Virus record (IMG/VR): IMGVR_UViG_2718218132_000001
Length of the DNA: 36,946 nucleotides
Strand: one strand, 5' to 3'
Source: a virus
Taxonomy: Duplodnaviria; Heunggongvirae; Uroviricota; Caudoviricetes
Position numbers and translations under genes: made by a program. Positions 1 to 31,641 of the stretch are shown here, one piece after another. Every line of letters begins with the position of its first letter. Within the stretch, counting starts at the first letter, position 1. The notes under the pieces are model-generated. The model was not told the DNA's origin and ran no database searches. It saw nothing but the letters and a program-made list of their open reading frames with translations.

Positions 1-258
1 ATGCAAACCGTTATTTTTGGTCGTTCGGGTTGCCCTTACTGTGTGCGTGCAAAAGATCTGGCTGAGAAATTGAGCAATGAACGCGATGATTTTCAGTATC
101 AGTATGTAGATATTCGTGCGGAAGGGATCACTAAAGAAGATCTACAACAAAAGGCAGGTAAACCCGTAGAAACCGTGCCGCAGATTTTTGTCGATCAGCA
201 ACATATCGGCGGCTATACCGATTTTGCTGCATGGGTGAAAGAAAATCTGGACGCCTGA
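1..258 (+). CDS. grxA: Glutaredoxin 1
   Basis: 85-aa ORF with the CPYC active-site motif (GCPYCVRAK); full length matches E. coli GrxA as I recall it; sits next to ybjM and ybjL as in Escherichia. Confidence 0.9.
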   Translation: MQTVIFGRSGCPYCVRAKDLAEKLSNERDDFQYQYVDIRAEGITKEDLQQKAGKPVETVPQIFVDQQHIGGYTDFAAWVKENLDA

Positions 259-268
259 TCGTCTGACA

Positions 269-934: not shown

Positions 935-2620
935 GTGAATATAAACGTCGCCGAATTGTTAAATGGGAATTACATTCTGTTATTATTTGTGGTCCTCGCG
1001 CTTGGGCTATGTCTCGGAAAGTTACGACTTGGTTCGATCCAACTGGGTAATTCCATTGGCGTTTTAGTCGTATCGCTGTTATTAGGCCAACAACATTTCA
1101 GCATTAACACCGATGCGCTTAATCTTGGCTTTATGCTGTTTATTTTCTGCGTCGGGGTCGAAGCCGGACCGAACTTTTTTTCCATTTTTTTTCGCGATGG
1201 GAAAAATTACCTAATGTTAGCACTGGTGATGGTTGGCAGTGCGCTGGTGATCGCCTTAGGGTTAGGTAAGCTGTTTGGCTGGGATATTGGCCTGACGGCC
1301 GGTATGTTAGCAGGCTCTATGACGTCGACACCGGTTCTGGTCGGTGCTGGCGATACACTGCGTCATTCCGGCATGGAAAGCAGGCAGCTCTCACTGGCAC
1401 TGGATAATCTGAGCCTCGGGTATGCCTTAACCTATTTAATCGGTCTGGTGAGTTTGATTGTTGGTGCGCGTTACTTGCCGAAATTGCAGCATCAGGACTT
1501 ACAGACCAGCGCCCAGCAAATCGCCCGCGAACGTGGCCTGGACACTGATGCCAACCGTAAGGTTTATTTACCGGTGATCCGCGCCTATCGCGTCGGCCCG
1601 GAACTGGTGGCCTGGACCGACGGCAAAAATCTGCGTGAACTGGGTATTTATCGACAAACCGGCTGCTACATTGAACGTATTCGACGTAACGGGATTCTGG
1701 CAAATCCAGACGGTGATGCCGTGCTACAAATGGGCGATGAAATAGCGTTGGTAGGCTATCCCGACGCCCATGCCCGACTCGATCCCAGCTTCCGTAACGG
1801 TAAAGAAGTTTTCGATCGTGACCTTCTCGACATGCGTATCGTCACTGAAGAAGTGGTCGTTAAAAACCATAACGCTGTAGGTAAACGTCTCGCACAACTG
1901 AAGTTGACCGATCACGGTTGCTTCCTTAACCGCGTCATTCGTAGCCAGATTGAGATGCCGATAGATGACAACGTCGTGCTTAACAAAGGTGACGTTTTAC
2001 AAGTCAGCGGCGATGCCCGCCGCGTAAAAACCATCGCCGATCGCATCGGCTTTATCTCGATTCACAGCCAGGTCACTGACCTGCTGGCATTCTGCGCCTT
2101 CTTTGTTATTGGGCTGATGATCGGGATGATCACCTTCCAGTTCAGCACATTCAGTTTCGGCATGGGGAACGCTGCCGGGTTGTTATTCGCCGGAATTATG
2201 CTGGGCTTTATGCGTGCTAACCACCCGACCTTCGGTTACATTCCGCAGGGTGCATTAAGCATGGTGAAAGAGTTCGGCTTGATGGTGTTTATGGCAGGCG
2301 TTGGTCTGAGCGCCGGTAGCGGTATTAATAACGGCCTGGGCGCGATTGGCGGTCAGATGTTGATTGCCGGATTGATTGTCAGTCTGGTGCCCGTGGTTAT
2401 CTGTTTCTTGTTCGGTGCTTATGTATTGCGAATGAACCGCGCGCTGTTGTTCGGCGCAATGATGGGCGCACGTACCTGCGCGCCGGCAATGGAGATCATC
2501 AGTGATACAGCTCGCAGTAACATCCCGGCGCTGGGCTATGCGGGCACCTATGCAATCGCCAACGTCCTGCTGACGCTGGCAGGGACAATCATCGTCATGG
2601 TATGGCCAGGATTAGGATAA
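935..2620 (+). CDS. ybjL: Putative transporter YbjL (AAE family; two permease halves flanking cytoplasmic TrkA-C-like domains)
   Basis: 561-aa ORF with N- and C-terminal polytopic hydrophobic halves around a soluble central region; synteny with grxA and ybjM. Confidence 0.85.
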
Positions 2621-2732
2621 AACTGAAGTTGCCCTGAAAATGAAATTTTTTTGCACAACCGCAGAACTTTTCCGCAGGGCATCAGTCTTAATTAGTGCCA
2701 CTGCTTTTCTTTGATGTCCCCATTTTGTGGAG

Positions 2733-2776
2733 CCCATCAACCCCGCCATTTCGGTTCAAGGTTGATGGGTTTTTTG
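2733..2776 (+). terminator. 10-bp perfect-stem hairpin (CCCATCAACC...GGTTGATGGG) followed by T6; terminator-like element near the host/prophage junction
   Basis: Inverted repeat 2733..2742 / 2760..2769 with a 17-nt loop, then tttttt; the large loop is atypical, so this could instead be part of the att region. Confidence 0.4.
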
Positions 2777-2855
2777 TTGCCTGAAATTTAAGCTGTTTAA
2801 AATCATGATGTTAGAAACACTGTTTTTTAACGATGGCGACAAAATGGCGGCAGCG

Positions 2856-19099: not shown

Positions 19100-19750
19100 T
19101 CAGCGGCTGTCATTGCGCAGTCTGCGCTCCAGCTGCTGTTTGTCTTTTTTCACGCCACAGCGGGGATCAAGCTGTAACGCATGGTTGAGATGATTAAGGG
19201 CGGAAGCCGGATTGCTTTCACTCAGGACAGCGCCAATCGCTTTATGCAGACGCGCCCGTGACTGGTCCGGCATATCCAGACCGTCTGTCAGCTCCAGCGT
19301 CTGCAACAACAGATCGGCATCAAAGCCGGTGGCGGCAAGCATTGCGCTCTGCGCGGCGTCTGCCATTTCCTCTGCCAGCACGGTCTGCACGTTGCGGTTA
19401 CCCAGCGGCATCACCCAGCCATGACGCAGGGCATGACGCCCGATCTCCAGCGCCCCGGCATAATCTCCGGCATCAATGCGCCACAGCATCACGTACATCA
19501 GCACGTCATCCTGTTGAGCGCCTCCGGCAGCCAGGACACCCTCTGCCCAGGCGGCGTACTTCGGCAGCAGCTCCACCTTGATTTCCGCTTTTTTGACCGT
19601 GGACTGAACGCCCTTGAGACGGCGGCGGTCTTCCGCCAGTTGCAGCAGCATCAGGTCATAGCCCGATGCGTGGCGAACACTGCCGCCCTCGCGGGCGGCC
19701 TGTTCAGCCTGAACGCGCAGGCGATGCTGCCGTGCGGGACTCAGGCTCAT
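19100..19750 (-). CDS. M: Terminase endonuclease/small subunit (gpM)
   Basis: 216-aa ORF between N and L; P2 gpM family. Confidence 0.85.
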   Translation of the reverse strand: MSLSPARQHRLRVQAEQAAREGGSVRHASGYDLMLLQLAEDRRRLKGVQSTVKKAEIKVELLPKYAAWAEGVLAAGGAQQDDVLMYVMLWRIDAGDYAGALEIGRHALRHGWVMPLGNRNVQTVLAEEMADAAQSAMLAATGFDADLLLQTLELTDGLDMPDQSRARLHKAIGAVLSESNPASALNHLNHALQLDPRCGVKKDKQQLERRLRNDSR

Positions 19751-21804: not shown

Positions 21805-23571
21805 ATGAACACCACACTGACACCCGCAGATCTCGATCCCCGTCGGCAGGCCATGCTGCTGTACTTTCAGGGATACCGCGTAGCCCGCATTGCTGAAATG
21901 CTGGGCGAGAAAGTTGCAACCGTTCACAGCTGGAAAAAACGCGACAAGTGGGGTGACTATGGGCCGCTGGATCAGATGCAGCTCACCACCGCCGCACGTT
22001 ACTGCCAGCTCATTATGAAGGAGCACAAAGAAGGGAAAGATTTCAAAGAAATTGATCTGCTGGCGCGCCAGTCGGAGCGCCACGCGCGGATCGGCAAGTT
22101 TAACAATGGCGGCAACGAAGCCGATTTAAACCCTAACGTCGCCAACCGCAACAAAGGCCTGCGCCGTCAGCCTGAAAAGAATGTTTTCACCGATGAACAG
22201 ATTGAGAAGCTGGAAGAAATCTTCCATTCCTCCATGTTCAACTACCAGCGTCACTGGTGGGAAGCCGGAAAAACTAACCGCATCCGCAACCTGCTGAAGT
22301 CACGCCAGATCGGCGCGACCTTCTATTTTGCCCGTGAAGCCCTGATTGACGCCCTGCTAACCGGACGTAACCAGATTTTCCTTTCTGCCAGTAAGGCACA
22401 GGCGCACGTCTTTAAGCAGTACATCATCGACTTCGCCAAAGAAGTGGAAGTGGAGCTGAAAGGCGATCCGATGGTGCTTCCCAACGGGGCCACACTGTAT
22501 TTCCTCGGCACCAATGCCCGCACTGCCCAGAGTTACCACGGCAACCTGTATCTGGATGAATATTTCTGGATACCGAAATTCCAGGAGCTGCGCAAAGTGG
22601 CTTCCGGTATGGCTATTCACAAAAAATGGCGACAAACCTATTTTTCCACGCCATCCAGCCTGACCCACAGTGCTTATCCGTTCTGGTCCGGTGCGCTGTT
22701 CAACCGTGGACGCAACAAAGCCGACAAGGTGGACATCGACCTGTCCCACAGCAATCTGGCCCCCGGCCTGCTGTGCGCAGACGGGCAATACCGCCAGATA
22801 GTCACCGTAGAAGATGCGGTGCGCGGCGGCTGTAACCTGTTCGACCTTGACCAGTTGCGCATGGAATACAGCCCGGACGAATACCAGAACCTGCTGATGT
22901 GTGAGTTCGTGGACGATCTCGCGTCCGTGTTCCCGCTCAGCGAGCTGCAGGCGTGCATGGTGGACAGTTGGGAAGTCTGGACCGACTTTCATGCACTGGC
23001 CCTGCGCCCGTTTGGCTGGCGCGAAGTGTGGATCGGTTATGACCCGGCAAAAGGTACGCAGAACGGCGACAGCGCCGGATGCGTGGTGGTGGCACCGCCA
23101 GCCGTGCCGGGCGGTAAGTTCCGCATTCTTGAGCGTCACCAGTGGCGCGGAATGGACTTCCGCGCCCAGGCTGACGCCATCAAAAAACTGACCGAACAGT
23201 ATAACGTGACCTATATCGGCATCGACTCGACCGGCGTCGGTCACGGGGTTTACGAGAACGTGAAAGCGTTTTTTCCTGCCGTCCGGGAGTTTGTCTACAA
23301 CCCCAACGTTAAAAACGCCCTGGTACTCAAGGCCTACGACATTATCAGTCACCGCCGCCTGGAATTTGACGCCGGACACACCGACATTGCGCAGTCATTC
23401 ATGGCAATCCGTCGCGCCACCACCGCCAGCGGCAACCGCCCGACCTATGAAGCCAGCCGCAGCGAAGAAGCCAGCCATGCCGATCTGGCCTGGGCAACAA
23501 TGCACGCACTGTTTAACGAACCGCTGCAGGGCGAGTCCGCCAATGCCAGCAATATTGTGGAGATTTTTTGA
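21805..23571 (+). CDS. P: Terminase ATPase/large subunit (gpP)
   Basis: 588-aa ORF; P2 gpP family; divergent from O and overlapping the Q start. Confidence 0.9.
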   Translation: MNTTLTPADLDPRRQAMLLYFQGYRVARIAEMLGEKVATVHSWKKRDKWGDYGPLDQMQLTTAARYCQLIMKEHKEGKDFKEIDLLARQSERHARIGKFNNGGNEADLNPNVANRNKGLRRQPEKNVFTDEQIEKLEEIFHSSMFNYQRHWWEAGKTNRIRNLLKSRQIGATFYFAREALIDALLTGRNQIFLSASKAQAHVFKQYIIDFAKEVEVELKGDPMVLPNGATLYFLGTNARTAQSYHGNLYLDEYFWIPKFQELRKVASGMAIHKKWRQTYFSTPSSLTHSAYPFWSGALFNRGRNKADKVDIDLSHSNLAPGLLCADGQYRQIVTVEDAVRGGCNLFDLDQLRMEYSPDEYQNLLMCEFVDDLASVFPLSELQACMVDSWEVWTDFHALALRPFGWREVWIGYDPAKGTQNGDSAGCVVVAPPAVPGGKFRILERHQWRGMDFRAQADAIKKLTEQYNVTYIGIDSTGVGHGVYENVKAFFPAVREFVYNPNVKNALVLKAYDIISHRRLEFDAGHTDIAQSFMAIRRATTASGNRPTYEASRSEEASHADLAWATMHALFNEPLQGESANASNIVEIF

Positions 23572-24602
23572 TGGGAAAGAGTAAGAAGAACCGCGCTGCG
23601 TCGACGAACCAGAACCAGCATAAAAGCCAGACTTCAGCCGAAGCATTCAGCTTCGGTGATCCCGTTCCTGTTCTGGACCGCCGCGAACTGCTGGACTATG
23701 TGGAATGCGTACAGATGGATCGCTGGTATGAGCCGCCCGTCAGCTTTGACGGACTGGCACGAACCTTCCGCGCCGCCGTGCATCACAGCTCACCGATTGC
23801 GGTGAAATGCAACATTTTGACCAGCACCTACATCCCTCACCCGCTGCTCAGCCAGCAGGCTTTTTCGCGTTTTGTGCAGGACTATCTGGTTTTTGGTAAC
23901 GCCTACCTGGAGAAACGCACGAACCGCTTCGGTGAAGTTATCGCCCTTGAGCCTGCGCTGGCAAAATACACCCGACGCGGGTTAGACCTAGATACCTACT
24001 GGTTTGTGCAATACGGTATGACAACCCAGCCATATCAGTTCACGAAAGGCAGCATTTTTCATCTGATGGAACCGGACATTAACCAGGAGATCTACGGCTT
24101 GCCCGGCTATCTTTCTGCCATTCCGTCCGCCCTGCTCAATGAGTCCGCCACGCTGTTCCGTCGAAAGTATTACATTAACGGCAGTCATGCTGGCTTCATC
24201 ATGTATATGACCGACGCCGCGCAGAACCAGGAAGATGTGAACAACCTCCGCAACGCGATGAAAAGCGCCAAAGGTCCAGGCAACTTCCGCAACCTGTTTA
24301 TGTACTCGCCTAACGGCAAAAAGGACGGGCTTCAGATCATCCCGCTGTCAGAAGTCGCAGCGAAGGATGAATTTCTGAACATCAAGAACGTGAGCCGGGA
24401 CGACATGATGGCGGCACACCGTGTGCCACCGCAAATGATGGGGATTATGCCGAGCAATGTAGGTGGGTTTGGAGATGTGGAGAAGGCCAGTCTGGTATTT
24501 GTACGTAATGAATTAATTTATCTACAAGGGCGATTAAAAGAAGTTAATTCTTGGGTGGGCGAAAAAATTATTTCATTCACCCAATACACTTTAGATAATT
24601 AA
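23568..24602 (+). CDS. Q: Portal protein (gpQ)
   Basis: 344-aa ORF, same length as P2 gpQ; downstream of P. Confidence 0.9.
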   Translation: MMGKSKKNRAASTNQNQHKSQTSAEAFSFGDPVPVLDRRELLDYVECVQMDRWYEPPVSFDGLARTFRAAVHHSSPIAVKCNILTSTYIPHPLLSQQAFSRFVQDYLVFGNAYLEKRTNRFGEVIALEPALAKYTRRGLDLDTYWFVQYGMTTQPYQFTKGSIFHLMEPDINQEIYGLPGYLSAIPSALLNESATLFRRKYYINGSHAGFIMYMTDAAQNQEDVNNLRNAMKSAKGPGNFRNLFMYSPNGKKDGLQIIPLSEVAAKDEFLNIKNVSRDDMMAAHRVPPQMMGIMPSNVGGFGDVEKASLVFVRNELIYLQGRLKEVNSWVGEKIISFTQYTLDN

Positions 24603-24653: not shown

Positions 24654-24968
24654 TTAGTTTCTATAATTAGAAATATAGTCATCCATTTTAGCCTGCTCTA
24701 TGATTCCACTATTTTTAATATACAAAACATTTGCCCAATCAAAATACTCACAAAGAATAACAATCATAGTCAAAAGCTTTTCATCAGTCATATTTATTAA
24801 CAGCTCATATTGTTCAGCTTTTTTTTCACTTTCAACTTTATCATCTATCAACTTCACCAAAAGATAAAATCTTCTTACCAAAGAGAAAAAATGATCATCA
24901 ACATCTAAACTTTCCAACCATGCAATGATTCTTTTCTTTTCTATTCCAGCTCTAACCAAGATGCTCAA
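24654..24968 (-). CDS. Hypothetical protein; probable C-terminal part of the upstream membrane protein, split by a frameshift at a G8 tract
   Basis: Starts only with TTG; its frame is open upstream to 25040 and a 1-nt change in the G8 tract (25032..25039) joins it to ORF 24986..25399. Confidence 0.45.
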   Translation of the reverse strand: MSILVRAGIEKKRIIAWLESLDVDDHFFSLVRRFYLLVKLIDDKVESEKKAEQYELLINMTDEKLLTMIVILCEYFDWANVLYIKNSGIIEQAKMDDYISNYRN

Positions 24969-24985
24969 GTTATCATCAATGAAAG

Positions 24986-25399
24986 TTATAGCATTATTAG
25001 ATCTATACTCAATAAGTGTAGGTTCTTTGGTCCCCCCCCTTTACTTTCATCATCATTATCTGCTCCATTACCGATTACAATACGCAATTTATTATAATTA
25101 GAATCTTGAGATTCAATTAGACAGAAAAACCTCACTTCAAATTTTTTGTAATCTTCAAGTAACTCTTGTCTTTTTATCTCTTGTTTCAATGTTGAGTTAG
25201 ACTGCACTTGTAAAGTTACAGAGCGAATCAGCAGGCAAATCGAGATAAAACTTAGTATAGGATTCAGGACCCCACCCATGAAGTCCCCAAATTGCCCCCA
25301 AACATCAGCATCTTGAGTACTTAAGTACCAGGGGCCAAACTTAATACAATAAACCCCCAAAACTATTATTATAAGAGCTAAACAAATTATTTTTAACAT
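24986..25399 (-). CDS. Hypothetical membrane protein (two N-terminal TM helices); N-terminal part of a probably frameshifted roughly 250-aa gene
   Basis: ATG lies 1 nt after the stop of the upstream gene; hydrophobic N-terminus; low GC; ends shortly after the G8 tract. Confidence 0.55.
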   Translation of the reverse strand: MLKIICLALIIIVLGVYCIKFGPWYLSTQDADVWGQFGDFMGGVLNPILSFISICLLIRSVTLQVQSNSTLKQEIKRQELLEDYKKFEVRFFCLIESQDSNYNKLRIVIGNGADNDDESKGGGPKNLHLLSIDLIML

Positions 25400-25400
25400 C

Positions 25401-26219
25401 TTACTGCACCGTATGCACTAAATATTTCACAGTTTCCCCACTGTTAATTATTACCCGACTTACAGTCAGTTCAAGATAAATATAACCAGCAGTGGAAGGC
25501 GGATTATTTACATGTAAGTTAGCCGAAATCATTCTTTTTTGAGCTGGAATGATGACACGTAAGGGGCTATAAAACCCAAATGCCACCGTATCATTTTCGC
25601 CCTCAAGAACAAGCCTACCATTGCCAGTGCGAGCATTAAATCTTGTAATATAAGCCCTGATTACTTCAGTCTTTTTTAAAACACGTGATGTGAATAAATT
25701 TGTTGCAGTAGATGTATCTAATTCAATTACTTTTTTCTTATCATGGGCACGCTGTTTAAAATTTAACTCGATATTATAGTTTTTTTTGAGGTTAATTTCA
25801 TGCATTCTTTTTAGAGGAGCTCGAATACGACCTATCAACTCATCCTCAATATCCGATAAACCTTTAACTACTTCTTCCGCTTCATTGGAAAGTTCGCGAC
25901 TCTCTAAATATAATGATTGCGAAATAAAGAAACTCATCACTTCATTAAATACTGGTTTAGATATTTTGCGAAGTTCTGATACCAGTTCAGCATCATTAAT
26001 AACCAAGTCAAAATTTTGACCATAAGAACCGGTGAAATTCCTCTTGAGTACAGCCCTTGCAGGATTTACATGAGAGCGGCGCTTTATTATTACTTTCCTA
26101 AGTATAGCCTCCGCCAACAAGCAAGTAACCTCTGCAGTTCCTGCAAGCGTGTCGAGACCGTATTCCATATCTACTTCATCATCGCCGCTTTTGATAATAA
26201 CATCGTAATTAACTCGCAT
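25401..26219 (-). CDS. Hypothetical protein (272 aa), first gene of an AT-rich cargo operon between portal Q and cos
   Basis: AAGGAAAG RBS 5 nt before the ATG; candidate -35 TTGACT upstream; no family recognised by eye. Confidence 0.6.
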   Translation of the reverse strand: MRVNYDVIIKSGDDEVDMEYGLDTLAGTAEVTCLLAEAILRKVIIKRRSHVNPARAVLKRNFTGSYGQNFDLVINDAELVSELRKISKPVFNEVMSFFISQSLYLESRELSNEAEEVVKGLSDIEDELIGRIRAPLKRMHEINLKKNYNIELNFKQRAHDKKKVIELDTSTATNLFTSRVLKKTEVIRAYITRFNARTGNGRLVLEGENDTVAFGFYSPLRVIIPAQKRMISANLHVNNPPSTAGYIYLELTVSRVIINSGETVKYLVHTVQ

Positions 26220-26255
26220 TTTCTTTCCTTACGAAAATAATTGCTTCCATTTTGG

Positions 26256-26284
26256 GATTAATCTTAAATTAGCATAGCAGTCAA
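26256..26284 (-). promoter_or_regulatory. Candidate sigma70 promoter for cargo operon 1 (-35 TTGACT, 17-bp spacer, -10 TTAATC)
   Basis: Hexamers read directly on the minus strand about 35 to 65 nt upstream of the 25401..26219 start codon. Confidence 0.3.
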
Positions 26285-26323
26285 TGTTTTTGAACAGCAT
26301 AATCCTAAAAGCGGTAGCGCGCG

Positions 26324-26342
26324 CTCGTATCCCCGCCACGCC
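26324..26342 (-). other. Candidate cos site (cohesive-end region)
   Basis: Minus-strand GGCGTGGCGGGGATACGAG resembles the 19-nt cohesive ends of 186 and P2 as I recall them (first 13 nt match my recollection of 186). Confidence 0.4.
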
Positions 26343-26458
26343 TGCCCGCTTTATGTAGTAGTTTTCATGCAGGTGCATGATCTACGCGAAAGCCCGCCAA
26401 TTCTGGCGGCCCTAGCAAAAACGATCCTCAAACGATCATGCGATCTCATGCAGCATAG

Positions 26459-27301
26459 TCATGCACGATCATTTGACTCAGCATCTGCTGCACGCTTGCT
26501 GCGCGAAGATGCACTTTTACTATCAATCTTTCGACAGTTCTTTCTATCCCTGGCTTCATTTTCTTTAAATTTGTTATATGTCTCAGTATCAAAAAACGAA
26601 ATTGTTTCAACCTCATCTTTTGGTATGAGCACACGGAAATCTTCGATATTAAGCCGAGACATTCCACTTATCACACCACTATCAAGATAATGTTGGTGAT
26701 AGTTAGTCGTGATACTAATCGTTAGATCATCTTTATCCCGATATCCGCTTAACATCGGGAGAAGTTCAAGGTGCTCTGAAAGCCCGTTTTCTAACGCCGG
26801 ACAAGTAACAAGACCAACATAGATTTTGCGAGACGACAGAGTTGCTATGATCGGAAACTGTCTTGCGGACGCTTCCATGAGTAATGATTCGAAAGCGTTA
26901 TTACCCACAGCTTTAGCTAAGGCATCCCAGCGACGATCTCCACGTGATGTGCGTAACTTATTTCCAAAACCTGAAATCGCAGCGAGGACAATTGAAATCA
27001 TAACCCATGCTATCTGTTTGATTTCATTTATTCTTTGAAGTTTGTCTTTCGATGAAGACAACATGCCATTAAAACTGTCAGGTGTTAGATTCAAGGCATT
27101 AGCCAGCCAACGAAACCCTCCGCTGACGTTCAAAATAAAGGTGAAAAAACCGCCAAGGAGAAAAAAAACGATACCCCAGGCAGCCACAAAAAAATAAGCG
27201 TCCCAGCCGTTGGAACGCTTATATCGGTATCTTGTTGAAAGTGATAGGTTTACATAAATAAAACCACTAACCAAAATCACTGCTAAAAGTAATGTTGCCA
27301 T
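26459..27301 (-). CDS. Hypothetical polytopic membrane protein (280 aa) with a soluble C-terminal domain
   Basis: Three to four N-terminal hydrophobic helices; translationally coupled (TAATG) to the upstream 71-aa ORF; AT-rich. Confidence 0.6.
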   Translation of the reverse strand: MATLLLAVILVSGFIYVNLSLSTRYRYKRSNGWDAYFFVAAWGIVFFLLGGFFTFILNVSGGFRWLANALNLTPDSFNGMLSSSKDKLQRINEIKQIAWVMISIVLAAISGFGNKLRTSRGDRRWDALAKAVGNNAFESLLMEASARQFPIIATLSSRKIYVGLVTCPALENGLSEHLELLPMLSGYRDKDDLTISITTNYHQHYLDSGVISGMSRLNIEDFRVLIPKDEVETISFFDTETYNKFKENEARDRKNCRKIDSKSASSRSKRAADAESNDRA

Positions 27302-27516
27302 TATCTGGTTCTATTAGTTTTCTCTTTTACAGTGCTCGTTTTGATGCCTTCAAGCTTATCCATCTGTGCCTTGATGGCATCCATTGCTCTTTTGTTAGAC
27401 AAGTCTACGGACACAAAACCATCTTTACTAAGATTGAGTTTGTCCTGGTTCTCTTTAAGAACCCTTGCCAGACGTTCAACTGGGTTACCCAGGCTAAATG
27501 CGGCGATGCTTGACAT
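27301..27516 (-). CDS. Hypothetical small protein (71 aa), first gene of cargo operon 2
   Basis: ORF whose stop overlaps the start of the membrane-protein gene; basic C-terminus; no family recognised. Confidence 0.5.
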   Translation of the reverse strand: MSSIAAFSLGNPVERLARVLKENQDKLNLSKDGFVSVDLSNKRAMDAIKAQMDKLEGIKTSTVKEKTNRTR

Positions 27517-28372: not shown

Positions 28373-30787
28373 TTAATACAGATCCCGCCACTTATCATCT
28401 TCCTGCAAACGCTGGTTCCGATAGAAGATACGCAGGCCTGCTCCTGACGGAATACTGCCACCGCGAAGGAGTAAATCGACCTCTTTCTCGCTGCCATCAA
28501 ATCCTCTGGACTTCAGTTCATAGACGAGCTGCTGTCGCTGATGATCTGTAATTCGCTGTTTGTAGTCTCTACGCCGTTTCGGTTTCACCAGGCGTAACCT
28601 TGCAGCCAGTTCCCGGCGCTCTTTTTTGCTCATACTGTGCAGGTAATCGTGCAACTCCTTGTCATCCATACAGGTAATGTCAGTTCTGGGATCCCCATCT
28701 GTTGATTTATCTTTCTCCTGTTGGTTCAAATTTTCAGCAAGGGGACAGTTATTGCCACGAGTCCAAGGGGCGCAAGCGCCCTGGTCGGCTGCCGCCTCCT
28801 GAACATCAACGGCCTTACGAACCATTTTCCACTTCACGGCATGAGTGCAGATCTTGCCCTCTGCAATAGGTGACCAGATGCCATAAATACGAATGCCGTG
28901 ATCGCCATAGGCGGTCGGCTCTTCGTTGATTTCATAAGCGGTTCTGATGAGGTGATATTTGCGGGGAACCAGTACGCCGCCCTGCTTCATGATGTAGGTG
29001 GCAAAACAACCAGCATCAGCAGCAGCCAGGATGGCATCAAGGCGTGGGTTATCCAGTACCGGCGCACCTGCTTTTTTGTCCCCCTGTTGCCTTGCCGCCT
29101 GACCAGCCAGCAATCGCAGTTCACGGTAAGCCTGACGCCCCGGAATGCCAAAGAAGCGGAATTGCTGAACACGATGCAGAGACGCCCAGGCATTAACGTA
29201 TTCAGCATTATCACGCAGGGATTTCCCCGTTTCCTTGCTGATCTCGCCAGCCAGACCACGCCCGTCAATGTTCTTACTGATGTATTTCGCGATGTAGCTT
29301 GTTGGCGTTCCTTTGCGCGGGTTAATCAACTCAGACTTAAAGCGCGGCCCAGTGTTATTGCCCAGCTCCTCGCGGTCTTCACGGATGGCAAACTTACGCA
29401 GTAATGCAGTGATGGCACGGCGGTCTTTTTTGCGCATGAAACACAACAGGTGCCAGTGAACTGTGCCGTCATGATGCGGCTCAGCCACCCGCACGCCATA
29501 CCAGCGCAACCCGGCTTTGTGCATCGCCTTACGAAATGCAGCAAACATGCCGACCAGATAATCGCTGCTTTGTCTTACCGTCGCGTTTGTCCAGGTCGGG
29601 TTTGGTCTGCCGTTATTGAGCGTGGAATGGAAACGTGACGGACAGGTGATGGTGTAGAAAACGGCGCAGTCACCGCGCATTTCCGCGATAAGCTCCAGAC
29701 CTTTAACACAGGCCATCATCTCATTGCGACGATGCGCCGGGTTGCTGCTGCTGGCGTTTACCACATCCTCCATGTCCAGCGTGTCGCCGTCTTCGTTCAC
29801 CAGTTCATGAGAACGGAAAAACTCCAGCGACTTACGGCGCTGCTCACGTTTATGCATCACGGCTTCATAGCTGACATAGGGAGATGCTTTTTTGCTGACC
29901 AGGCAGACAGCACGCAACTGCTCTTCCCGCCATTCGCAACGCATCTTCCATAATTTCCGATACCACCAGTCGGCGCACAACATACGCGCCAGCGAACCCG
30001 GAATGAGTTCATAGGGCACGGGTTTACGGCGGTTTCTTTTCCGACGGAGTTGCTCAAACGCAGGAGGGATTACATCCAGACGCAGGGTTTCCGCTGCCAC
30101 CTTTTCCCATGTCTTGCGGATTTCTTCTGGCTTAACGTCATCGGTGGCATACAAATCACCACAAGCTGCATCAAGGCACATGCTCATATGCGCGGCAACA
30201 AGGGTAGACAGGCGCTTCACCTGATCCTGACTCATTTCAGGCAGGATCAGCAGGCCGTCCAGCCCTTCATGGCTTGCCATAAAGCGAAAAGAAGTGGATA
30301 GCTGACTCTCGCGTACATGCTCCAGTCGTTCCAGACATGGCTTAATCGTCTCACGCAAATAGCGGGAATAAGCCTTTGGCCTGCCCAGGCTGCTGAAGTA
30401 TTCAATACGTTGCATCAGCGGCTTGCTGATATGGGAAGGCTGGGCGTTGACGTCCGCCAGAATGACCATATCCGGATTAAAACGCTGCTGCTCATGCGCC
30501 AGCTTTGCCCGACTAATGAGCTTATCCTGCTCGATTTCGCGCTGGACAGGATCACGGGATTCATTAAAGAAATAACGCTCCCAGACCTGATCACTCAGCG
30601 CCTCACGGCGCAGCTGTTCCTGCTCGTTATCGGCAGCGTACAGAGTGATCAGGTTTGAAAGCGCAGAAACCGGCGCAACTTCCGCCGGGTCCAGATAAGG
30701 GTTAATGGCCTTTTTCGGGCTGCTCCATGAGAATGCTGCTGCGACCTCGTTAAAGCCGCTGCAGTTGTTCATATCAGCATGGCTCAT
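28373..30787 (-). CDS. A: Replication initiation endonuclease (gpA, rolling-circle initiator)
   Basis: 804-aa ORF, P2 gpA family; position between the Dam gene and the tum-like region. Confidence 0.9.
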
Positions 30788-31641
30788 GCACGCACTCCGT
30801 ACACGGCAGAACTATCCACGCCACGCGAAGGATCAAATCCCACCCAGCAGCGCGGCCCGGAAACAGCGATGATTTCTGTTGCTGATTTACACTCGCCAGC
30901 TGCCACACCGATGCTGCGTTTTACCTTGATATAGTGGTGAGTAAAATTGCGATACAGCGAACGAATCAGGGATGTGTCACTGTTAGAAACAATGACCGGA
31001 TGTCCTTCAGATGATCGATGTTCAAGAACGGATGCCAGGTGATACTGGTCATCTTCAGTGAAACCATCAGTGTGATAGCCGGAAAACGTACCGTCATAAG
31101 GCGGATCGCAATACACCACATCCCCCGCCTTCAACATCGCCAGCGTTTCATCAAAGCTGGCGCAGATAAACGTTGCCCGCTGGGCTTTTTCTGCAAATGC
31201 GCGAATTTCTTTTTCAGGGAAATACGGATTTTTATAATTCCCGTAGGGAATGTTGAAATGTCCGCTCTTGTTATAACGACATAACCCACGGTAACCGTGA
31301 CGATTGAGATACAGGAAATATACTGCTTTCATGAAATCAGTAATTTCAGATGAGTAATTAAACTCCTGCCTTATGTTGTAATAAGCCACCTCCCTGTTTG
31401 CTTCCTCAAATAAGACTCTGGCACGAGATATAAATGATTCGCAATCAGCGGCAATCTTTTTATAGAGGTTGATTAAATCAGGATTAATATCAGCAACCAG
31501 ATAGCTGGGGTAATCCGTCGCCATCATCACAGCACAGGAACCCGCGAAAGGTTCAACCAGTCGCGGGCCAGCAGGAAGGTGTTTTTTCAGTTCGGACATA
31601 ATGGCGGTTTTATTACCCGCCCATTTCAGGATGGTGCTCAT
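30784..31641 (-). CDS. dam: DNA adenine methyltransferase (Dam-like, GATC-specific family)
   Basis: DPPY catalytic motif ([10 protein letters not shown]) and N-terminal SAM-binding motif ([11 protein letters not shown]); start placed at the Met overlapping the upstream stop. Confidence 0.85.

Follow-up and report, generated by a model that had tools for sequence, protein, structure and literature searches.

A conserved GATC pair in the cos arm of Fels-2-type P2-like phages and its possible connection with Dam methylation

The stretch of DNA analysed here (the window; IMG/VR virus record IMGVR_UViG_2718218132_000001, 36,946 nucleotides) is a P2-like (Peduoviridae) prophage of the Fels-2 type, with a map inverted relative to that of P2. 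To one side of its cos site five GATC tetramers fall close together, and an earlier reading of the letters alone (the original prediction) had proposed that these act, in a phage with its own Dam methylase, in the manner of the pac site of phage P1. We find that the five sites lie in the right-end arm of cos, that two of them form a pair conserved in Fels-2-type helper phages and missing from P4-like satellites, and that this pair is a helper-specific accessory of cos, very likely selected and plausibly read through its methylation state. We hold the explanation as a whole, from the location in the cos arm through the selected pair to the reading of methylation, at somewhat less than an even chance, since that figure is set by its weakest step, the reading of methylation. 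The features of the arm are as follows, in window coordinates and with the strand where one applies; counts out of 12 refer to an alignment of 12 phages from six genera.

26316-26467: conserved cos block, comprising the cut and the right-end arm of the mature genome; 82-93% identity, with abrupt edges.
26324-26342: 19-nt cohesive end of cos, the reverse complement of ggcgtggcggggatacgag / GGCGTGGCGGGGATACGAG, identical to the published SEN8 cos.
26366-26379: proximal box CATGCA (26366-26371) with an inverted copy GCATG (26375-26379), at +24 from the cut.
26379-26382: GATC no. 1, in 5/12 aligned phages, the others having GACA, GAGA or GGCA; confined to a subclade.
26391-26413, minus strand: G+C-rich palindrome or hairpin with the core CGCCA-NNNN-TGGCG, followed by TTT on the minus strand; the copy in the window carries a 1-nt deletion.
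26423-26437: conserved GATC pair (26423-26426 and 26434-26437), 11 bp from start to start, the second site fused to the first distal box as GATCATGC.
26437-26465, plus strand: distal boxes CATGC (26437-26441), CATGCA (26447-26452) and CATGCA (26460-26465), invariant in the 12-phage alignment.
26442-26445: GATC no. 4, in the spacer that separates the first two distal boxes, in 5/12, the others having GATT, AATT, GGATT or AGATCC; confined to a subclade.
26467-26470: GATC no. 5, at the outer edge of the block and in the 3' end of a 280-amino-acid cargo open reading frame (ORF; 26459-27301, minus strand); unique to the window among the 12.

The suggestion that a cos-like sequence lies beside the cluster was borne out, as the 19-mer at the cut is identical to the cos sequence reported for SEN8 (PMC5427200) and the GATCs fall inside the conserved cos block. 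The SEN8 record terminates at the base matching window position 26343, the ends of the SEN8 and Cartapus records lie within or beside the block, and the cohesive end of the window aligns with the cosR feature of P2 and with the ends of 186, PSP3 and P4. When the window was compared with phage records by blastn, the match was confined to approximately 26314-26467, at the identity given above, in phages of Felsduovirus, Elveevirus, Gegavirus, Gegevirus, Dagavirus and Kapieceevirus with Salmonella, Klebsiella, Escherichia and Yersinia as hosts, and the similarity broke off sharply at both edges, where unrelated cargo starts. Like P2, 186, PSP3 and P4, the window has the sequence for a 19-nt 5' cohesive end of the GGCG(A/T)GGCGGGG type, and like the cos of the P2 family in general its site falls in the interval from the portal gene Q to the replication gene A, with variable cargo or defence hotspots on both sides. 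It also shares the conserved core at the cut, in which the GCCC-CTT, TTTT and ATGCA columns are invariant in comparison with P2, 186, PSP3 and the satellites. The cos sites of the P2 family and of P4 were described by Ziermann and Calendar in 1990, as cited in PMC9122126 and PMC5694545, and a 55-bp core at the P2-family cos is cited in the latter. The block of approximately 150 bp is the cos site of this lineage, and we are highly confident of the location and anatomy of the GATCs in the right-end arm of a Fels-2-type cos. An ORF of 49 amino acids runs across the cut (window 26229-26378, minus strand), and similar short coding sequences annotated as "hypothetical protein" overlie cos in several phage records; loci other than the window are cited here by L numbers (L004, 294-437; L006, 228-437; L007, 290-439; L008, 263-433); these short ORFs spanning cos are probably artefacts of the conservation of cos at the DNA level.

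The arm was aligned among the window, Fels-2-type phages, two P4-like satellites, 186, PSP3 and P2, and P4 itself was read separately. In the aligned set the layout is collinear and nearly free of indels, running from the cut through the (A/C)ATGCA box at +24 and a palindrome at about +50 to three (A/C)ATGC(A) boxes from +96. The ATGCA at +24 is invariant throughout this set and is present in P4 too, the ATGC core of the first distal box stands at +95/+96 from the cut (96 in nearly all surveyed helpers and satellites), and the layout of three distal boxes is common to P2, 186, PSP3 and P4. CATGC occurs five times within 99 bp (26366, 26437, 26447 and 26460 on the plus strand, 26375 on the minus strand) and 65 times in the window on both strands (P = 0.0015), a signal that is statistically stronger than the clustering of GATC. 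The GATCs had been described as embedded in short repeats, which holds in the sense that they are interleaved with CATGC; the family-wide repeated element of the arm is the (A/C)ATGCA box, and GATC is not among the family-wide elements. P2 and P4 use one terminase for packaging (PMC9122126), and because their arms have little in common beyond the core and the boxes, we infer that the boxes are recognition elements for terminase (gpM/gpP). About 50 bp from the cut, the sequence of the palindrome core, CGCCAG-NN-CTGGCG, is conserved among Fels-2-type phages, 186, PSP3 and P4; the core is absent in P2. It folds as a hairpin in minus-strand RNA, and its conservation makes it look more like a protein-binding site than a simple terminator. 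The palindrome was also noted at L013, L014 and L255. Our literature search found no description of the box array, of the pair or of a Dam effect on P2-family packaging, although Ziermann and Calendar may have noted the boxes.

Five GATC sites do lie within 92 bp as claimed, exactly at 26379, 26423, 26434, 26442 and 26467, which is 37-128 bp from the cos cut. The window has 130 GATC sites in total, or one per 284 bp, close to the 125 +/- 10 expected from composition, so that the phage overall is not rich in GATC. The count across the window that had been proposed as a check upheld the 92-bp span as the tightest cluster of five in the window, the next tightest being 206 bp, with P about 0.02-0.03, a modest significance from a test that is post hoc, the tetramer having been picked after looking. 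Of 3000 dinucleotide-preserving shuffles, 1.7% had a span of 92 bp or less, as did 3.1% of uniform placements; the inner four sites (48 bp) gave 3.0% and 5.9%, respectively. The clustering is thus real but modest. The second, looser cluster of five GATC in 206 bp lies at the left edge of the window (55-260).

Since three of its five sites are unconserved, the cluster is also partly accidental. GATC is found at offset +37, the position of site no. 1, in 12 of the 111 dereplicated helper arms, and site no. 5 was found otherwise only in two near-identical IMG/VR contigs (L039 and L130). The GATCs outside the pair arise incidentally, from spacers rich in GAT and from the adjoining cargo gene. An inverted near-repeat specific to the window, CAAACGATCATG / CACGATCATTTG (26430-26441 and 26464-26475), brackets the distal boxes; it forms the strongest predicted stem in minus-strand RNA, one that needs the unconserved fifth GATC.

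The two central sites behave differently from the other three. For a wider sample, 120 IMG/VR stretches and 120 stretches from GTDB species representatives were collected by the cos core pattern; Fels-2-type arms were chosen from these solely by their box array, and helper arms were those of loci that also encode Q or gpA. The pair is invariant in 12/12 aligned phages, and both sites are present in 42 of the 45 distinct helper arms with the box array. A forty-third, L062, has the pair at an offset shifted by an extra box, and the two remaining pair-less helper arms are each one or two point changes away from it. Information per column is near maximal on GATC(C) and GATC and low in the 7-bp spacer and the upstream flank, the spacer being CTCAAAC, CTTTTTG, CAATTTG, CTGTCTG and others in different arms, and arms with a diverged palindrome and distal array still keep the pair (L041, L100 and L122). 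That the pair stays intact amid drifting bases, including in these diverged arms, argues that the two tetramers themselves are constrained, and from this comparison we consider it very likely that the pair is under selection.

The pair is also specific to helpers. Eleven distinct arms with the same proximal and distal boxes (e.g. TCATGCGTTTTCATGCAGCATAGACATGCAC) carry neither of its GATCs (0/11), and satellite markers are found in 9 of the 12 loci that have the box array but no pair; L058 and L102, for example, encode a P4-type integrase, an alpha-type primase-helicase, Ash and Psu/Sid-like proteins beside defence cargo. Among 39 distinct arms from loci positive for P4-like markers (e.g. L058, L102, L153, L192 and L254) the pair is found in none. 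If the satellites that share the boxes use Fels-2-type helpers, they do without the pair, and for this reason it is unlikely to be needed for terminase recognition or cleavage. L115, from IMG/VR, has two cos sites of different types, with patterns at 2537 and 9784 (7.2 kb apart), one with the pair and one without, and may represent a satellite beside a helper, or tandem elements.

Helpers and satellites differ likewise in their overall content of GATC. In dereplicated arms beyond the 36-nt core, compared with a first-order Markov expectation, GATC is the most over-represented tetramer of helper arms (117 observed versus 41.9 expected), and under stricter dereplication (65 versus 29.5) only ATGC ranks above it. 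Satellite arms match helper arms in their enrichment of the box words but show none for GATC (5 observed versus 6.4 expected). The GATCs of helpers gather at offsets +37, +47, +81/82, +89-93 and +100-104, and a second helper lineage, from Pectobacterium, Serratia and Rahnella (L042, L064, L085, L098, L137, L157, L166, L177, L186, L189, L208, L214 and L252), keeps GATC at three offsets, +37, +47 and +90, with spacers that vary. Arms of an Aeromonas type (L126, L155 and L246) have no CATGC boxes and carry two or three repeats of the GATCCTT type at the position of the distal boxes, so that in that lineage the repeated unit itself holds a Dam site.

The prophage dam gene that had been read from the sequence is confirmed by its family matches:

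30784-31641, minus strand: dam (D12 class, E. coli Dam-like), directly upstream of gpA; PF02086 8e-77, TIGR00571 1e-95.

Against known structures its product matches E. coli Dam (2g1p, 2e-74), DpnM (6e-33) and T4 Dam (1e-17); the latter two are GATC-specific, and homology suggests the same specificity for the window Dam. Host Dam is present in all of these Enterobacterales. Counting only loci in which the region upstream of gpA is visible, Dam stands beside gpA in 24/34 pair-bearing loci and in 2/30 others (Fisher P 1e-7), or after dereplication in 14/20 and 2/24 (Fisher P 3e-5), counts that carry shared ancestry and linkage; three of the loci with both pair and Dam have a distant gpA type. 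There are exceptions in both directions, the pair being kept without Dam in L022, L025, L049, L051, L228 and L235, which have a Fels-2-like Q, and missing in L112, which has a Fels-2-like gpA and Dam with another type of Q and cos. These exceptions indicate that the pair travels with the packaging module and that Dam is a frequent but dispensable companion. Taken together, the conservation of the pair, the enrichment in helper arms and the co-occurrence with dam partly favour a link between these GATCs and Dam. The role of phage-borne Dam in temperate phages is still largely unexplained (PMC7556043). In the literature we found no described link of Dam or GATC to a P2-family cos and no report of undermethylated GATCs in the cos of Fels-2 or P2-like phages; a paper on a Dam-dependent prophage was set aside, as it concerns intA of ST64B and not this system.

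Several known systems can be compared with this arrangement. The pac site of P1 spans 161 bp, with seven TGATCA/G hexamers flanking the cut, and its cleavage is governed by Dam methylation (PMC10028697). Both P1 pac and the window cos are sites of packaging initiation where Dam sites cluster beside or within repeats presumed to bind terminase, and both phages have a Dam of their own, with specificity for GATC in the window judged from homology. In P1, however, the GATC hexamer is itself the repeated binding element, and its seven copies flank the cut, within pacA, in a phage that packages by the headful, whereas in the window the repeat is (A/C)ATGCA and the two conserved GATCs lie on one side of the cut of a cos-type phage. 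Only CGATCA at 26433 and 26466 fits TGATC(A/G) or its complement in the window arm; both of these hexamers lie on the same side of the cut and one is unconserved. We therefore reject a P1 pac hexamer architecture, P1 pac being the analogue that the original prediction had named, since two hexamers only fit and the repeated word differs. A pac-type site is unsupported, and it is possible, by analogy, that the arm works as P1 pac does; methylation dependence has been demonstrated for P1 pac and is for the window cos a hypothesis.

The arm is in some ways closer to cosB of lambda, which has R sites for the small terminase subunit and an IHF site beside cosN. Both are one-sided arms of about 100-130 bp with short repeats at fixed spacing and a central architectural element, but their sequences are unrelated and they belong with different terminase families (gpNu1 in lambda, gpM with PF05944 here); binding of gpM to the boxes, the counterpart of the lambda R sites, is put forward here from the comparison of arms. 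Dam sites are not known to have a role in lambda cosB. Among the P2 family, the Fels-2 type differs from P2, 186, PSP3 and P4 in adding the GATC-N7-GATC pair and a longer G+C-rich palindrome; the arms of P2, 186 and P4 have no GATC, and that of PSP3 has one, elsewhere in the arm. The spacing of the pair also resembles that of SeqA sites such as those of oriC and the dnaA promoter, as a pair of GATCs that lie on one face of hemimethylated DNA, separated by about one helical turn, is the minimal site for SeqA. A SeqA site calls for a minimum of two GATCs on one face of the DNA and no more than about three helical turns apart, and as far as sequence goes the window agrees with this; the compatible 11-bp spacing of 26423 and 26434 is conserved in 42-43 of the 45 helper arms. 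Sequestration at oriC, unlike the window with its two conserved sites, involves many GATCs (11 in 245 bp).

If the pair is read through its methylation state, host Dam and phage Dam would both methylate it, and after replication the hemimethylated or unmethylated pair would alter the occupancy of the first distal box by terminase, or would recruit SeqA. In this way the use of cos would be adjusted to the state of the helper genome in replication and methylation. The pair would be dispensable for basic recognition by terminase, in keeping with the box-sharing satellites that do without it. A function of this kind for the pair we regard as possible and somewhat doubtful. In a stronger form, Fels-2-type phages would gate or tune the cleavage of cos by methylation of the pair, with phage Dam securing timely full methylation and satellites bypassing the control, and this we regard as unlikely. 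If this were true, a packaging signal sensitive to methylation would be on record for the first time in a cos-type phage, and the enrichment of GATC at fixed offsets in helper, not satellite, arms would point to Dam/SeqA as a general input to packaging in the P2 family where hosts are Dam+.

A number of observations weigh against methylation reading. The function proposed for the pair comes solely from sequence comparison, and the packaging of satellites by Fels-2-type terminases is judged from the identity of their boxes. Common descent and physical linkage, with about 4.5 kb between cos and dam, confound the association of the pair with Dam, and ten pair-bearing loci have no Dam next to gpA. 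In the second helper lineage no D12 Dam was found next to gpA where that region is visible. No GATC is found in 55 of the 111 dereplicated helper arms, including those of P2 and 186, and with half of the helper arms GATC-free the tetramer is not general to P2-type packaging. In close relatives all of the block is conserved; it is the more divergent arms that carry the argument for selection on GATC itself. Finally, a protein that simply recognises half-sites containing GATC would yield the same pattern of conservation. This last point leads to the main rival to methylation reading, in which the pair is an ordinary sequence-specific contact, with direct half-sites GATC(C/A) one helical turn apart, for a DNA-binding protein particular to the lineage, for instance this clade's gpM small terminase or an architectural protein of the host, with methylation irrelevant or incidental. 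Such a contact would account for the pair following the late or packaging module rather than dam, as in the six Dam-less loci and L112 described above, and the Aeromonas-type distal repeats, being GATCCTT units without CATGC boxes, also fit GATCC as a protein-binding word. However, the box-sharing satellites without the pair imply that the shared terminase does not require it, and the second lineage conserves GATC at other offsets; a Dam site as the conserved word twice is harder to take as coincidence. GATC also has the top rank among enriched tetramers in helper arms. Moreover, in a Dam+ host a protein contacting GATC would meet methylated adenines, which makes strict independence of methylation unlikely. 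We consider an ordinary contact somewhat unlikely, and less so than any other alternative to methylation reading.

It could also be argued that the five-site cluster has no function and built up by chance in a block conserved for its boxes, its palindrome and their fixed spacing. The window-wide P value is modest and post hoc, three of the five sites are unconserved, the spacers are rich in GAT (GATT, GAATC, GGATT) so that single changes create GATC, and P2 and 186 work without any GATC here. Chance is nevertheless quite improbable, as in arms with less than 77% identity the central two sites have been kept though the bases that separate and precede them vary, the pair is absent from satellites under the same constraints of box and spacing, and GATC is enriched 2.2-2.8 fold across the helpers of the family. 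Another possibility is that the pair and the G+C hairpin together form a terminator-proximal RNA or DNA element at the 3' end of the minus-strand early or cargo transcript, which would block read-through into cos and which satellites, with different flanking transcription, would not need. In favour of this, the stop codon of the cargo is followed on the minus strand by the boxes, the GATC pair, the hairpin and a T-run, in that order. Helpers have the hairpin as well as the pair, and in box-sharing satellites each is missing or altered; the predicted folding of the region is stronger than that of its shuffles (z = -3.3), and in L122 the hairpin is preserved through changes on both sides of the stem. 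We think it very improbable all the same: a consensus scan calls no terminator at the hairpin in the window, Fels-2 or 813R9, the core of the palindrome is conserved in sequence beyond what pairing demands and is found in P4 and 186 as well, the strongest stem of the window uses the unconserved fifth GATC, and there would be no reason for an RNA element to need GATC specifically. The original prediction had alternatively proposed control of the adjacent cargo operon, in which case the cluster would be a Dam-sensitive switch of the phase-variation type (pap, agn43, Mu mom) on a promoter of cargo or defence genes. Dam-sensitive regulatory regions typically hold 2-4 clustered GATCs, and this cluster lies between two cargo modules. 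The proposal is unsupported and scarcely credible, as a consensus promoter scan of 26100-26700 found no sigma-70-like site on either strand, and so no GATCs in a regulator site at a promoter, and the same block stands unchanged beside unrelated cargo in different phages (hypothetical, Ymh-domain, SEFIR, AIPR and ATP-binding proteins). The right-hand cargo, moreover, is transcribed toward the cluster, and the left-hand cargo starts at least 160 bp away across the cos cut. The same scan found no conserved promoter in Fels-2 and 813R9; a promoter-like match in Fels-2 with GATCAT as its -10 element was dropped because its -35 element is not conserved. The pair region, checked only by eye against the IHF and OxyR consensus sequences, gave no convincing match.

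The genes that frame the cos region and its presumed terminase are the following:

19100-19750, minus strand: gpM-like small terminase subunit (PF05944 Phage_term_smal, 2e-40).
23568-24602, plus strand: gpQ-like portal gene, edging the left cargo hotspot beside cos; Q homologues were detected in related loci.
28373-30787, minus strand: gpA-like replication initiator, 92-99% identical to the annotated gpA of Fels-2 and 813R9, edging the right cargo hotspot.

The gpM-like protein is the presumed reader of the cos arm, and the window has a gpP-like ORF as well. The gene order in the window is P and Q (21805-24602, plus strand), three cargo ORFs of 104, 137 and 272 amino acids (24654-26219, minus strand), cos, two further cargo ORFs of 280 and 71 amino acids (26459-27516, minus strand), gpA and dam. 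This agrees with the order Q, cargo, cos, cargo, dinI and gpA in the annotated records of Fels-2 and vB_EcoM-813R9, and with the cos-proximal defence hotspot between gpA and gpQ that has already been published (PMC9122126). None of the five cos-flanking cargo ORFs matched a Pfam or PADLOC family, apart from a weak ZorB/MotB match for the ORF of 137 amino acids, and the cargo therefore offers no clue to a regulatory link; from their place in the published P2 hotspot, these ORFs may be uncharacterised defence genes. At the left of the window, a full-length RybB small RNA (2700-2778, plus strand; 105 bits, Rfam) lies beside an ORF of 561 amino acids (935-2620, plus strand). This region is host chromosome, with the start of the prophage just right of rybB. 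A search of the full window against Rfam gave this host RybB only, with no match at cos.

P2-like phages serve, with their P4-like satellites, as a model of molecular piracy, and the regions flanking cos are major hotspots of defence genes, yet the internal anatomy of the cos arm has so far been poorly described beyond its 55-bp core. The present analysis maps the arm across the family, with its boxes standing at fixed offsets and a palindrome in the centre, and adds the conserved, helper-specific GATC pair and its statistical link to a phage-borne Dam. If methylation of the pair is without effect on packaging, the pair would still be a useful marker of Fels-2-type cos sites and a candidate protein-binding site. 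If it does affect packaging, the paradigm of P1 pac would be extended to cos phages, phage Dam genes would gain a concrete function, and a point would be revealed at which the packaging of helper and satellite differ.

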